Shown here: one piece after another, positions 45,140 through 51,220 of the stretch
Layout of the letters: every line of letters begins with the position of its first letter
Numbering within the stretch: position 1 is the first letter of the stretch
Assembly: GCA_965198225.1 (NCBI GenBank)
Contig: CBDAOY010000008.1
Location: 1,216,001 to 1,280,000 of the forward strand
Direction of reading: 5' to 3'
Source of the DNA: Terriglobia bacterium
GTDB lineage: Bacteria; Acidobacteriota; Terriglobia; 20CM-2-55-15
Length of the DNA: 64,000 nucleotides
The notes under the pieces: generated by a model
What the model was told of the DNA's origin: nothing
What the model saw: only the letters and a program-made list of their open reading frames with translations
Databases searched by the model: none
Translations under genes and position numbers: made by a program

Positions 45140-45883
45140 TTATTTCTTCCACTTCTGCGGACGTGGCGGCAGTAATTCCCGCGGCACGTTCGTCTGGGCA
45201 CGCGGCTCACCGCGGTGACAGGTCCAGCAGGTCAGTACTTCCCTGCCGTCGAAGAAATCGTCCTGAAGGCCCGCACGAATCTCGATCATCCTCCGGGCCA
45301 TCAGCTTCTGGATCTGGTCGTCGCTGGACCAATCCCCCGGAGTATGGCAGTGCGTGCAGCAGACACCGAGTGAAGCGACGAACGTGTACATCACTTCGCG
45401 AAGCTCGTTGGCCGGGATGTCCCCGAGCTGGTGGAGGTTCTCGTAGACCTCGCCGGCCGGGCGTGTCTCATCCGAGAACGCTGTTGCCGGCATCGCCCGA
45501 ACCATCGCCATCATCTCGGGGTCGACCTCGGTCTCCGGCTTCGTCGAACCGCGGTGGCAGGTCCAGCAACTCGCGGCCTCGAAACCCTGGAAGTACTCCT
45601 CGCCCGCGACCGCAACCATGCGCATCATGTCCCGGGCCGTATGCTTCTCGGGCTTGTCGTCCAAATGCCAACCCGCCCGGTCGTGGCAGTGTTCGCAACG
45701 CACCCCCAGCGTCCGGCTCGTGACCTGCATGATGTAGCGGAGTTCGTCCCCGGGTATGTCGGTGAGGATCTGGACGTTCTGAAACGGCTCGGACTGCTCC
45801 TGTTGAGCCCTTGCGTGGGGCGCGGCCGGGACGATCGCCAGAATACCGGCAACCAGGATAATAAAGGTGGTGATGCGAAACAT
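45140..45883 (-). CDS. Exported tetraheme c-type cytochrome (reaction-centre cytochrome c-like repeats)
   Basis: CEHCH, CWTCH, CTHCH, CWTCH in two internal repeats with 'LGVxCxxCH' and 'ARxM'; signal peptide. Confidence 0.85.
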   Translation of the reverse strand: MFRITTFIILVAGILAIVPAAPHARAQQEQSEPFQNVQILTDIPGDELRYIMQVTSRTLGVRCEHCHDRAGWHLDDKPEKHTARDMMRMVAVAGEEYFQGFEAASCWTCHRGSTKPETEVDPEMMAMVRAMPATAFSDETRPAGEVYENLHQLGDIPANELREVMYTFVASLGVCCTHCHTPGDWSSDDQIQKLMARRMIEIRAGLQDDFFDGREVLTCWTCHRGEPRAQTNVPRELLPPRPQKWKK

Positions 45884-45934
45884 CCTGCCTATGTATCACC
45901 GGACAGGACTGATTTCAACGACAGGCGCGGATCT

Positions 45935-47494
45935 TTACGAACTGTCTCTCAGCTTGAAACGTTGAATCTTCCCTGCGGCAGTCTTCGGGAGGTCGTCGAC
46001 GAATTCGATCCGGCGAGGATACTTGTAGGGTGTCAGCCGCATCTTGACGAGGTCCTGTAGTTCACGGACGAGCGGCCCGTCGCCCTCGACGTCGGCCTTG
46101 AGCACGACATAGGCCTGCGGCTTGAGGAGCTTGTTGTCGTCCAGCCAGGGAACGACAGCCGACTCTAAAACCGTCTCGTGTTCCACCAGACAGTTTTCGA
46201 TCTCGATCGGCGACACCCACTGGCCCGAAACTTTGAACATGTCGTCCGAACGGCCTGCGTAGAAAAGAAAGCCGTCCGGATCCCTGTAGTACTTGTCGCC
46301 GCTGAAAAACCAGCCATCCTTCCACTTCTCCCTGTTCAACTCTTCCCTGTTCCAGTACGAAGGCGCGGTGCTGGGTCCCAGCACCCATAGATCCCCGACG
46401 GCACCGGCCTCCACCTCGTTACCGGATTCGTCGGAGATACGCACGTCATATCCGGCTATCGGCTGGCCCGTACTGCCCGGTTTGACGTTGCCCGGTCGCG
46501 ACGAAGCATACATGTGCAGAACCTCGGTCGACCCGATGGCGTCGAGGATCTCCAGCCCGAACCGTTCCTTCCAGCGGTTGAAGATGGCCGGCGGCAGCGG
46601 TTCCGCCGCCGAGACGCAATGGCGGACACTGGACAGGTCGTAGGGGTTCTGTGCGTCAGTGGAGGCCAGCATCGCGGCATAGAGCGTCGGAACGGAATAG
46701 AAAAGGGTAGGCCGCCGGTCGTGCGCCGTCTTCAGGATGACGTCGGGCGCCGGCCGCCCCGGGTAGAGGAGCGTGGTCGCTCCGACATGGAGTGGGAACA
46801 TCAACGCGTTGCCCAGTCCGTAGGCGTGAAAGAGCTTGGATGAGGAAAAGGTGATGTCGCCGGGTCCGATGTCGAGGATCCCCCGCGCGAAACACTCCGC
46901 ACAGTAGTTCCAGTCCCGATGACGATGCAGGGCCCCTTTCGGGAGTCCCGTACTGCCGGATGTCCACAGCCAGAAGGCGATGTCGTCCCTCGCGGTGTCG
47001 GCGGGGGTCAGTTCGGTGGACTGTTCGCCGATCCATTGTCCCCAGTTCAGATGCCCGCCTTCGATGTCGCCCCGGACGATGACATGTTCCAGGCTTTTGC
47101 GTTCGCCCAGCACCGGCTGGACCTCGGTCCAGAGAGCGGCATCGACGATCAGGGCTCGGGCCTCGCTCTCGTCGAGGAAATAAGCGTAGTCCGGCCCCCT
47201 CAACGCCGTGTTGGTGAGAACCGCAACCGCCCCACTCTTGACTGTTCCCAGGTATGCCGCGCCGAACTCCGCACAGTCGGGCAGAAGGATCAAGACCCGA
47301 TCGCCCGATAGGATCCCCAGTTGACCGAGACCGTTGCCGACGCGGTTGACCATCTCGTGGAACTGGAGGTACGTGATCTTCCGGCCCTCGGAAACGATCG
47401 CAACCTTGTCGCGGCGGCCCTCCGCGATGTGGCGGTCGACAAAATGGGTCGCCATGTTGTAGCGGTCCGGGATCTCGATGGCTGGCGTACTCAT
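45935..47494 (-). CDS. Benzoate-CoA ligase family AMP-binding enzyme
   Basis: 'WLWTSGSTGLPKG', 'KLFHAYGLGN', 'SAAEPLP', 'IGSTEVLH', 'LPKTAAGKIQRFKLR'. Confidence 0.88.
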   Translation of the reverse strand: MSTPAIEIPDRYNMATHFVDRHIAEGRRDKVAIVSEGRKITYLQFHEMVNRVGNGLGQLGILSGDRVLILLPDCAEFGAAYLGTVKSGAVAVLTNTALRGPDYAYFLDESEARALIVDAALWTEVQPVLGERKSLEHVIVRGDIEGGHLNWGQWIGEQSTELTPADTARDDIAFWLWTSGSTGLPKGALHRHRDWNYCAECFARGILDIGPGDITFSSSKLFHAYGLGNALMFPLHVGATTLLYPGRPAPDVILKTAHDRRPTLFYSVPTLYAAMLASTDAQNPYDLSSVRHCVSAAEPLPPAIFNRWKERFGLEILDAIGSTEVLHMYASSRPGNVKPGSTGQPIAGYDVRISDESGNEVEAGAVGDLWVLGPSTAPSYWNREELNREKWKDGWFFSGDKYYRDPDGFLFYAGRSDDMFKVSGQWVSPIEIENCLVEHETVLESAVVPWLDDNKLLKPQAYVVLKADVEGDGPLVRELQDLVKMRLTPYKYPRRIEFVDDLPKTAAGKIQRFKLRDSS

Positions 47495-47602
47495 GGTCGA
47501 AAGATGCGGGCTCGAGGGGACAGTCTAGTCGAACGTCGCAACAGGGTCCAGGGCGGCGCAGAGGCATCGCTGTGTGGTTCAATACATGCTACCGGAGACG
47601 AC

Positions 47603-48181
47603 ATGTCGGACAGACCATGGATTAGAGTCATCGATGAAGACTCGCCCGAGCTGACGCCCAAGCTGCGGGAGATGTACAACGAAATGGCGGACCCGCGCGG
47701 GCCGGTCGACAATATCCTCAAGATCCACAGTCTCCACCCGGAGTCCCTCCGGATCCACTGGTGCTTCTACCGCATGGTCATGTACGGCCCGTCAAAGCTT
47801 TCGCGCGTGCGGCGGGAGATGCTCGCCGTGGCGATCTCGGCGGCCAACGATTGCCACTACTGAATTCTCCATCACGCAGCGGGACTGCGTCGGCTGACCA
47901 AGGATGCCCCCTGGGTGGATGAGTTGGTGGAGGACTACCGGAAGGTTGACCTGGAGCCATCGGACCGCGCCATGCTCGATTACGCGATCAAACTGACGCT
48001 GGAACCGGCTAGGATGGTCGAGCAAGACGTCACCCGCCTGCGGGAGGCCGGCTTCGAAGACCGGACCATCCTCGACATCAACCTGATCACCGGGTACTAC
48101 GCCTTCGTCAACCGCCTCGCCGACGGCCTGGGCGTCGGGTTGGAAGACTTCTGGCTGGCACAGGAGCCCCGCAGAGAGTAG
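47603..48181 (+). CDS. AhpD/CMD-family peroxidase-related protein with in-frame TGA (probable selenocysteine, CxxU)
   Basis: 'REMLAVAISAANDCHY*ILHH' continues in the same frame into 'LDYAIKLT..YYAFVNRLADGLGV'; TGA at 47861-47863; 192 aa with readthrough. Confidence 0.88.
47874..47890 (+). promoter_or_regulatory. Candidate bacterial SECIS hairpin
   Basis: ACGCAG-CGGGA-CTGCGT stem-loop starting at position +11 after the TGA. Confidence 0.72.
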
Positions 48182-48282
48182 GAATAGACGCCTCAGCAGC
48201 TACTTTATCAACAACATTTTAAACCACTTAAAATGGGGGACACGGGAGTCTGTCCCCTATTTCAGGAGTGACGCTTATTGGG

Positions 48283-48345
48283 TGCTAAAAAAATAGCATT
48301 TTTTGTTTGACCGGTCGCCAAGAGTGATGCTAGTTTTTTAGCATC
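48283..48345 (+). promoter_or_regulatory. Promoter with twin TGCTA-N6-TAGCA operators
   Basis: Palindromes at 48283-48298 and 48328-48343; -35 TTGACC at 48307-48312; TGn-TAGTTT extended -10 inside the second palindrome. Confidence 0.75.
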
Positions 48346-48368
48346 GCTTCAGGAAGGAGCTTTAATCG

Positions 48369-48758
48369 ATGGTGAAATCCGTTCATTCCAACCTGAGCCG
48401 GCGCGAACGTCAGATTATGGATGTTCTGTTCAAAAGGGGACAGGCGACCGCGGCGGACATCATGGAAAACATCCCGGAGCCGCCTAGCTATTCGGCCGTG
48501 CGCGCGATGCTGCGTGTCCTGGAAGACAAGGGTCACGTCCGCCACGAGCAGGATGGCCCCCGCTACGTATTCATCCCGACCGTCACGCGGGACAAGGCGA
48601 AACGGTCGGCGATGCAACACATGCTGGACACGTTTTTCGAAGGCTCGACAGCACAGGCTGTCGCAACGCTGTTGGACGAATCCGGCTCCAAGCTGTCCGA
48701 CGACGAACTGGAACGGCTGTCCGGTCTCATCGACAAGGCCCGGAAGGAGGGCGCATGA
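48369..48758 (+). CDS. BlaI/MecI/CopY family transcriptional repressor
   Basis: 'LSRRERQIMDVL', 'YSAVRAMLRVLEDKG', 'FFEGS'. Confidence 0.93.
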   Translation: MVKSVHSNLSRRERQIMDVLFKRGQATAADIMENIPEPPSYSAVRAMLRVLEDKGHVRHEQDGPRYVFIPTVTRDKAKRSAMQHMLDTFFEGSTAQAVATLLDESGSKLSDDELERLSGLIDKARKEGA

Positions 48759-51220
48759 GAGCCCTGGCACTGGCCCTACAGCCGGCACTGATCGGCATCC
48801 TGGTCAAGGGGACCCTGGTCCTTCTTGTGGCCGCAGCCGCCAGTCTCCTGCTTCGGCGAGGGTCCGCCGCCGGTCGCTATTTGATCTGGAGTTCCGCTCT
48901 CGTTGTCCTGATCGCTCTCCCGATTCTGCTGGTTGCGTTACCTTCATGGAATCTACCTTTTGATACAAGTCTCTTAAACCTCGACTTAACAGCACCCGAA
49001 CCGGTCTCTCAGCCGGTCGTGGGACAGGAGTCCCCAGTCGCGGAAACGGAGGCCGTTGACAGGTTCGACGCCCAAAGGCCGGGCTCGCTGGAGGCAGCCG
49101 GGACAATGCCTGAGGCAGGCCCGCCTGACACGAGCAGGGACGATGTTGCCGCCCCGCCGCGTCTCTCGCCCGCCATGTCGAGGATCAGCCGGGCGAACAC
49201 GGCGGCCTTTGTCATCTGGATCGTCGGAAGCTTCTGCGTCCTGGGCCGCTTGTTGTTCGGGTTTGTGGGAATCTGGTGGCTCGCGCGCCACGCCCGACCG
49301 GTCATGGATCGCGAGCTCCTCGACCTTGCCCGCAAGCTGTCGGACGACATCGGTCTCAAGACCCCCGTCCGTCTGCTCCAAAGCGATCGGTCGATCACGC
49401 CGATGACCTGGGGCATCACATGGCCCGCGATCCTCTTGCCGAAAGACGCCACCGAATGGTCCGATGAACGCCGGCGGATGATCCTGCTTCACGAGCTGGC
49501 ACACGTGAAGCGCCGCGACTGCCTCGTTCAGTTCGTCGTCTGGCTGGCCTGCAGCCTCTACTGGATGAATCCTTTGGTCTGGATCGCGGTCCGGAAGATG
49601 CACATCGAACGGGAGCGAGCCTGTGACGACCTGGTCCTCGATTCCGGATTCCAGGGAAGCGATTACGCCGAGCATCTGCTCGAAATCGCCAAGTCCCTGC
49701 GGACGGCGCCGCTATCGGCGCTCACGACTGTGGCCATGGCCCACCGCTCACACTTCGAGACCCGACTCCTGGCGATACTGGATCCCCGCCTGCGCCGCCG
49801 CGAATGGAGCCGAGTCGCCTCGATCGCCTTCGTCATGGTCGCAGTCCTTGGTGCGACCGCTCTCGCAACGGTGCAGACGAGCAGTTCTGAAACGGCGGAA
49901 CCCGCCCCGGAGGAACGACTCGTCGCTGGAGTCGACCCGTCCCCGGCACCTGGCCCCGAGCCTATGCCGAGCCCCGGACCTGCGCTCGAGCCGGGACCGA
50001 TGCCGAATCCAGTTCCTCCCCAGTTGACCCAGGCCCTGGAGAACGCGAGAACACAGCTCCTCCCAAGGCTCGAGTTATCCGTGCGCCCCCTGCTCGAGCA
50101 GACCCTCCCGGATGTGGAGGACATGGTCCGTTCGGCCGAGTTCAGGTTCCGTCAATCCCAAGCCGCGTCCCAACTCACGGAAGAGGAGCGGGAAAGCCTT
50201 CGCGCATCGCTGGCCGTCACGCTGCAGGACGAAGATCCGGGCGTCCGGCAGGCCGCCGCGCTGGCTTTGGCCCAACTCGGGGACGAACGAGCGACCGACG
50301 CTCTGATTGGCGCATTGTCGGATGAGGATCCAGACGTCCGGCGCGACGCAGCTTATGCTCTGGGCGAAATCGAGGACTTGCGAGCGCTCCAGCCGATCCT
50401 GGCGCTGCTATCGGACTCCGCATCGGACGTCCGGCGAGCCGCCGCCTGGGTACTTGGCGAACTGGACGACCCGCAGGCGGTAGAGCCGCTGATCACCTCG
50501 CTCAGAGACGACAATTCCGAAGTTCGGCGCGCCGCTGTCTTGGCGCTGGCCGAGATCGAGGACGCCCGGGCGCTGGACTCTTTGATCGATGCCATGAGCG
50601 ACCCGACCGCCGAAGTGCGACGACACGCCGCGTGGGCGCTGGGCGAATTCGATGACCCGCGTGCGTTCGACCCATTGATCGAGGCGCTCGACGATACCAA
50701 TGCAGAGGTCCGGAGATTCGCCGCGGCCGCACTGGGCGAAATCGACGACCCGCGGGCCGTCGAACCACTAATCGCCGCGCTCGGTGACGAATACCCTGAA
50801 GTTCGAAGATCCGCCGCCATGGCGCTCGGTGAACTGGATGAGCCCCGCGCCGTTGAACCACTGATCGCGGCGCTGAACGACACCTACTCGGAAGTGCGAA
50901 GGTTCGCTGCGGCCGCGCTCGGCGAACTGGATGATCCTCGTGCTCTGGATGCTTTGATCGTCGCTCTCGAAGACGAGAACGCCGACGTCCGAAGATTCGC
51001 CGCCGGGGCCCTTGGCGAGCTCAGCGACGAGCGGTCGGTCGATGCGTTGATGTCGATCCTCGACGACGAAAACGCCGAGGTACGCCGTTTCGCGTTGTAC
51101 GCTCTGGCGGAGATCGGCGATCTCCGCGCCCTGGGCCCCATCCGCGCAGCTCTTACAGATGCGAATGCCGAGGTACGCCGGGCCGCGGCGCACGCAATCC
51201 AGGAGATCCTCGACAACTAA
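48755..51220 (+). CDS. M56 (BlaR1/MecR1-like) metallopeptidase with C-terminal HEAT repeats
   Basis: TM helices, 'HELAHVKRRD', 'ERERACDD'; Pro-rich linker; 11 repeats of 31 aa ('D...VRR.AA.ALGE..D.RA...LI.AL', last one partial). Confidence 0.92.
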   Translation: MRALALALQPALIGILVKGTLVLLVAAAASLLLRRGSAAGRYLIWSSALVVLIALPILLVALPSWNLPFDTSLLNLDLTAPEPVSQPVVGQESPVAETEAVDRFDAQRPGSLEAAGTMPEAGPPDTSRDDVAAPPRLSPAMSRISRANTAAFVIWIVGSFCVLGRLLFGFVGIWWLARHARPVMDRELLDLARKLSDDIGLKTPVRLLQSDRSITPMTWGITWPAILLPKDATEWSDERRRMILLHELAHVKRRDCLVQFVVWLACSLYWMNPLVWIAVRKMHIERERACDDLVLDSGFQGSDYAEHLLEIAKSLRTAPLSALTTVAMAHRSHFETRLLAILDPRLRRREWSRVASIAFVMVAVLGATALATVQTSSSETAEPAPEERLVAGVDPSPAPGPEPMPSPGPALEPGPMPNPVPPQLTQALENARTQLLPRLELSVRPLLEQTLPDVEDMVRSAEFRFRQSQAASQLTEEERESLRASLAVTLQDEDPGVRQAAALALAQLGDERATDALIGALSDEDPDVRRDAAYALGEIEDLRALQPILALLSDSASDVRRAAAWVLGELDDPQAVEPLITSLRDDNSEVRRAAVLALAEIEDARALDSLIDAMSDPTAEVRRHAAWALGEFDDPRAFDPLIEALDDTNAEVRRFAAAALGEIDDPRAVEPLIAALGDEYPEVRRSAAMALGELDEPRAVEPLIAALNDTYSEVRRFAAAALGELDDPRALDALIVALEDENADVRRFAAGALGELSDERSVDALMSILDDENAEVRRFALYALAEIGDLRALGPIRAALTDANAEVRRAAAHAIQEILDN

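Follow-up and report, generated by a model that had tools for sequence, protein, structure and literature searches.

The gene at positions 47603-48181 of the window (the whole stretch of 64,000 nucleotides that was analysed) very probably encodes a 192-residue AhpD-like selenoprotein of the carboxymuconolactone-decarboxylase superfamily, with selenocysteine (Sec) at codon 87. A preliminary description of this DNA had proposed a single 192-aa CxxU selenoprotein of this kind that gene callers split in two, and the proposal is supported by the homologues, by the selenocysteine machinery of the genome, by assembled contigs and by a conserved hairpin. The reading frame contains exactly one internal stop, the TGA at 47861-47863. 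The list of open reading frames under translation table 11 breaks the frame into the pieces 47321..47863 and 47915..48181, which lie in the same frame, are parted by this one TGA and have the coordinates first given for them. The peptide around the TGA reads A-N82-D-C84-H-Y86-U87-I-L-H90-H91. Alignments with orthologues begin at residue 4-6, so that the ATG at 47603 is likely to be the start codon, rather than the TTG upstream at 47321. The coding sequence and the signal in front of it are:

47603-48181, + strand: predicted coding sequence of the AhpD-like (TIGR01926) selenoprotein, 192 codons followed by TAG (48179-48181), translated with TGA as U
47594-47597, + strand: GGAG, Shine-Dalgarno-like, 5 nt before the ATG at 47603, as read from the sequence

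Profile searches were performed with the query written with Cys in place of Sec. The protein matches TIGR01926, "peroxidase-related enzyme", at 152.7 bits (cut-off 81.8) over profile positions 1-173 of 178, and the Pfam family CMD (PF02627) at 48.4 bits (cut-off 23). TIGR01926 is a model that we take to fall within COG2128. The canonical AhpD model TIGR00777 was not passed (18.3 bits, cut-off 191.95), and neither was NF041238, the AhpD_rel_CFYUT (seleno)protein model, which reached 37.6 bits against a cut-off of 175 over profile positions 215-339 of 357 only. Among solved structures, PDB 3C1L (Mlr4105) is matched with an E-value of 5.9e-34 over residues 8-180, and nearly end-to-end matches were obtained for 2PFX (3.5e-30), 2PRR (7.6e-27), 6K40 (9.2e-26) and 2OYO (6.3e-22). 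All five show full-length similarity and carry Cys where the window protein has Sec; the C-x-Y-C-x3-H core is the same in 3C1L and 2PFX, the two alignments inspected. These solved relatives are mostly labelled "uncharacterized", with 2OYO entered as "uncharacterized peroxidase-related protein" and 6K40 as "alkyl hydroperoxide reductase AhpD".

The residues of the AhpD-type relay, Glu-x11-Cys-x-(His/Tyr)-Cys-x3-His, are present in the window protein, with U87 standing for the second Cys. E72, C84, Y86 and H91 are invariant in an alignment of 22 sequences. The codons concerned are:

47816-47818, + strand: Glu72, first residue of the AhpD-type proton relay, invariant, spacing E-x11-C
47852-47854, + strand: Cys84, first residue of CxxU, invariant in the 22-sequence alignment and in all 80 loci read as DNA
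47861-47863, + strand: TGA of the predicted Sec87, second position of CxxU, TGA in 76 of the 80 loci and TGT or TGC in four
47873-47875, + strand: His91, last relay residue (C-x-Y-U-x3-H), invariant in the 22-sequence alignment

Two characterized proteins provide the comparison for this arrangement. According to PMC3141380, Pseudomonas aeruginosa PA0269 (PDB 2O4D) is an AhpD-like protein with weak peroxidase activity and a relay of Glu36, Cys48, Tyr50, Cys51 and His55. The spacing is identical to that of Glu72, Cys84, Tyr86, Sec87 and His91 in the window protein, His91 corresponding to His55; PA0269 differs in having CxxC instead of CxxU and a different chain length, and was not among the solved-structure sequence matches. 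The same source gives the relay of Mycobacterium tuberculosis AhpD, the adaptor that reduces AhpC, as Glu118, Cys130, His132, Cys133 and His137 within a two-helix motif. Its catalytic logic is the same and its His137 corresponds to His91, but it has His132 between the redox residues where the window protein has Tyr86, and the window gene has no adjoining ahpC-type gene. Because the relay spacing equals that of both proteins, the predicted Sec87 is placed at the second redox cysteine of CxxC.

The column of the TGA was examined across homologues. A scan of public genomes, with one genome per species, yielded 583 relatives, the best 80 of which were analysed as DNA. TGA stands at the CxxU column in 76 of these 80 loci, TGT in two and TGC in two; TGG was found in none of the 80. 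The best 80 of the 583 relatives belong to Acidobacteriota, Chloroflexota, Gemmatimonadota, Marinimicrobia, Planctomycetota, Calditrichaceae, Acidimicrobiia, Bacteroidetes and others. Nearer to the window, a six-frame search of 40 related genomes returned 28 matches in 22 genomes, 21 with exactly one TGA and seven without. The TGA was placed at the CxxU column in all 17 of the relatives' loci that were inspected, a set that leaves out four further TGA-bearing matches without a locus. Members of the same genus and family are 70-77% identical to the window protein across residues 4-185, a range that spans the TGA, and the closest relatives (72-77% identity) all have TGA. Close relatives also contain a second TGA-bearing paralogue with 35-39% identity (G003:C1:2026482, G002:C1:1435547, G012:C7:890305 and G020:C43:215735). 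In the genome of the window itself, a search with the window protein as query revealed no second copy of the gene.

The protein database presents the same column in a different form. Among the 120 matches listed, the residue is C in 22, W in 27, G in seven, S in two, R in one and L in one; 59 are pieces of about 105-137 aa that start right after the Sec column, and in one (P0118), a longer protein, the alignment starts only at residue 98. P0004-P0026 are among the entries with W at the column or a start right after it. The W entries, seen as protein records, most likely represent TGA translated under another table, since no TGG occurs in the 80 loci read as DNA. The preliminary description had pointed to this column as the place where homologues should have Cys or TGA, and both are found there, Cys in the database (22 of the 120 matches listed) and both forms in the DNA (TGA 76/80, TGT or TGC 4/80). 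The splitting by gene callers that it had anticipated is visible in the 59 half-length pieces among the 120 matches listed.

Directly downstream of the TGA lies the hairpin that was originally noted:

47874-47890, + strand: SECIS-like hairpin, 6-bp stem ACGCAG/CTGCGT with the 5-nt loop CGGGA, first base the 11th after the TGA

Its sequence and position are as claimed, and it is kept in homologues with compensatory changes. For 47861-47895 the fold of lowest energy is this hairpin, at -8.4 kcal/mol. Compared with shuffled sequences it is not thermodynamically unusual in that 35-nt segment (z -0.26); in a 66-nt context (z -0.15) a different minimum-energy fold wins, and the bare 17-mer alone stands out (z -2.47). 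Among all 42-nt segments of this gene, the one that follows the UGA has a rank of 0.59. In 76 Sec genes the post-UGA segments of this length are only modestly more stable than other segments of the same genes, with a mean of -10.5 as against -8.4 kcal/mol and a median rank of 0.30. A permissive Rfam search of 47500-48400 gave no match to a SECIS-type family.

Covariation was analysed in an ungapped 57-column alignment of 90 sequences (89 distinct), which comprised the window's own sequence, those of 14 relatives and those of 75 TGA loci, the 76th (L079) being dropped because it contains an N. The six stem pairs are formed in 79.4% of cells, a share that falls to 29-53% once the 3' arm is shifted by 1-3 columns. 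None of 500 shuffles reached the observed paired share or covariation score, counts that overstate independence because the compared sequences are related. The number of double-change pairs and the number of further pair types were not above those of the shuffles. At pair 26-36, 47 sequences have G-C, 15 have C-G and six have G-U; at pair 24-38 the counts are 52 for C-G, nine for U-G and four for U-A. Column 26 falls on the second position of an Ala/Gly codon and column 36 on the third position of a Leu codon; because the two columns covary, the synonymous choice of Leu codon tracks an amino-acid change four codons upstream.

The position of the hairpin was also compared with that of hairpins elsewhere in the same genes. 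Hairpins that have a stem of 6 bp or more and a loop of 3-7 nt, and that start 8-14 nt after the codon, follow 57 of 77 Sec codons and 1127 of 12413 other codons of the same genes (9.1%), an enrichment of about eight-fold that the relatedness of the sequences likewise inflates as a count of independent cases. Such a hairpin follows none of the four Cys forms, and a 6-bp hairpin in this register is absent from 20 of the 77 Sec genes. The loops nearly always contain G, examples being CGGGU, CGGGA and GGG. Such loops agree with what PMC1088965 gives as a feature of bacterial SECIS elements, a stem-loop directly downstream of the UGA with G in a small apical loop. The support for the hairpin as a putative SECIS element is comparative, not thermodynamic.

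One subclade of Chloroflexota/Anaerolineae with the peptide HHARNLRQLT (loci L098, L102, L106, L108, L109, L110, L117 and L120) has no hairpin at +11 and carries a 6-7-bp hairpin with the loop AGUU about 11 nt further downstream. This is a shifted SECIS position inside one protein family.

The genome to which the window belongs (6.4 Mb in nine contigs, 97% complete) encodes the components of selenocysteine insertion. The preliminary description had named selA, selB, selC and selD as the genes to search for, and all four are present: selA at 537 bits, selB at 387 bits, selD at 373 bits and tRNA-Sec at 72.9 bits, each above its curated cut-off, the tRNA also being called by ARAGORN as SeC with the anticodon TCA. 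The selD gene (G000:C9:419380-420303, locus L010) has one in-frame TGA within it, and selenophosphate synthetase is probably a selenoprotein itself. Among related genomes, selB is above cut-off in all 17 that carry the TGA form and is present in 36 of the 40 sampled. The four genomes without a selB match (E 1e-60) are 91, 83, 68 and 100% complete and have no TGA form; two of them contain stop-free matches only and two contain no match. Selenocysteine use looks common in the sampled Terriglobia.

TGA is also the commonest stop in the window, where it ends 29 of 52 open reading frames of at least 300 codons, and no internal TGA was seen in the 13 other large genes checked in the window. The genome is consequently not a recoded one. 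The codon itself, which was to be confirmed in raw reads, was compared with contigs (not raw reads) of four runs, each from a different study. These cover 47861-47863 and show no difference there, although contigs drop rare variants and one of the runs may be the source sample.

Three other explanations of the TGA were weighed against selenocysteine. That it is a true stop, leaving either a pseudogene or two small genes (an N-terminal piece of 86 aa and a piece of 88 aa from the GTG at 47915), is extremely improbable. The table 11 listing does split the frame there, and 59 of the 120 database matches listed are of half length; those pieces, however, begin exactly one codon after the TGA, a hallmark of selenoproteins that have been mis-called, and no conserved independent start signal accompanies them. 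Termination would moreover cost the protein the catalytic His90 and His91 together with its whole C-terminal half, whereas 76 of the best 80 of 583 loci, across phyla, retain the TGA with protein conservation on both sides of it. An assembly or sequencing error for TGC or TGT, in an ordinary CxxC protein, is barely conceivable. Cys forms do exist in four of the best 80 loci and in 22 of the 120 matches listed, but the contigs of the four runs agree on TGA with no variant listed, the nearest relatives at 72-77% identity all have TGA, and the SECIS-type hairpin that is present here is absent from the four Cys forms.

The third explanation is that near-cognate suppression or an alternative genetic code puts one of the standard amino acids (Trp, Cys or Gly) at the UGA. 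It is suggested by the W and G residues that 27 and seven of the 120 matches listed have at this column, and is nevertheless highly improbable. In the DNA of the 80 loci this column holds TGA, TGT or TGC, with no case of TGG; TGA is the commonest normal stop of the window; the full Sec machinery is present and co-occurs with the TGA forms; and the position is that of the redox-active Cys of the motif.

The genome is that of a soil-type member of the Terriglobia (Acidobacteriota), and under the selenocysteine reading its Sec system would be a working one. By the established bacterial mechanism, the UGA at codon 87 would be read as selenocysteine during translation, SelB and Sec-tRNA(Sec) presumably being recruited by the mRNA hairpin 11 nt downstream with its apical-loop guanosines. 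As the AhpD literature suggests, Sec87 and Cys84 may cycle between the selenol/thiol and selenenyl-sulfide states, aided by Glu72, Tyr86 and His91. This would make the protein a thiol-dependent oxidoreductase which either reduces hydroperoxides directly or re-reduces a peroxiredoxin-type partner. No ahpC-type gene or peroxiredoxin was seen next to the gene among the neighbours at the loci.

The genes and elements that surround the selenoprotein gene in the window are:

45140-47494, - strand: benzoate-CoA ligase family gene, then a 247-aa multihaem c-type cytochrome, upstream and divergent
48236-48257, placed on the - strand by the site scan: terminator-like strong GC hairpin, 55 nt past the stop
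48369-48758, downstream: blaI-like repressor gene (Penicillinase_R, 105 bits)
48369-51220, downstream: the blaI-like gene together with a BlaR1-type M56 peptidase gene, the blaI stop overlapping the peptidase start

The GC hairpin stands between the selenoprotein gene and the blaI-like gene and is strong in its 46-nt fold (-21.3 kcal/mol, z -3.43). The M56 peptidase is 821 aa long and has a very long HEAT-repeat tail (HEAT_2, 523 bits, 10 stretches). Just upstream of the blaI-like gene, at 48279-48347, is an AT-rich long inverted repeat, possibly the operator of the BlaI-like repressor; two Rfam microRNA matches on it (E 0.029 and 0.65) were attributed to chance. On the other side, the family of the divergent neighbour, named earlier as a benzoate-CoA ligase, is confirmed by TIGR02262 (595 bits, cut-off 375), and the cytochrome is of the non-photosynthetic PufC-like kind (NF033196, 128 bits).

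Five window neighbours were compared by tblastn with 94 loci, among which L042 and L043 repeat the places of L025 and L026; five of the loci contain the ligase and seven the blaI/blaR pair. These loci belong to the same genus or a sister genus only. Clustering of the open reading frames of the 80 loci showed no recurrent flanking family beyond 7/80, the gene itself and alternative-frame shadows being set aside. The selenoprotein gene appears to be singly transcribed and stand-alone, with no conserved adjoining partner gene. A redox role tied to aromatic acid metabolism, which had been suggested from the divergent arrangement, is unsupported, the ligase linkage being confined to five of 94 loci in close kin. 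It is very unlikely that, in this Terriglobia lineage, the Sec protein is functionally tied to the divergent ligase and c-type cytochrome; if it were, the protein could, for example, support the activation of aromatic acids as a selenol-based reductant or by guarding it against peroxide, and would share with them the 108-bp intergenic control region. The arrangement with the ligase is kept in the same and the sister genus, and collinearity among close kin explains this equally well.

Selenoproteins of this kind have been described before. Zhang, Fomenko and Gladyshev reported in 2005 an AhpD-like (COG2128) CxxU family from the Sargasso Sea, with 27 sequences and predicted SECIS elements (PMC1088965), and the preliminary description was correct in referring to CxxU AhpD-like selenoproteins as already known. 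Members in sequenced genomes are reported for 2006 (PMC1794560). In the marine metagenomes treated in PMC2398784, AhpD-like 1 is among the most abundant selenoprotein families, the GOS data containing 299 selenoproteins and 902 Cys homologues of it. BSepDB 2026 presents AhpD-like selenoproteins as a browsable family (PMC13326102).

The window protein shares with the 2005 family, as characterized in that report, the CMD/AhpD-type domain, Sec as the second residue of CxxU, many Cys homologues, and, directly downstream, a bacterial SECIS whose small apical loop contains guanosine. Nothing is different in kind; the present copy is from a Terriglobia genome.

The gene adds one more member to a selenoprotein family that is already well described, and offers little for discovery. 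Its value for annotation is that 47603-48181 should be called as one selenoprotein of 192 aa. To judge by the halves (59/120) and the W entries (27/120) among the matches listed, mis-calling of the family, by mistranslation or by splitting, seems to be widespread in public protein sets. The Sec form marks the catalytic residue of the TIGR01926 branch, and could in this way guide an assay.
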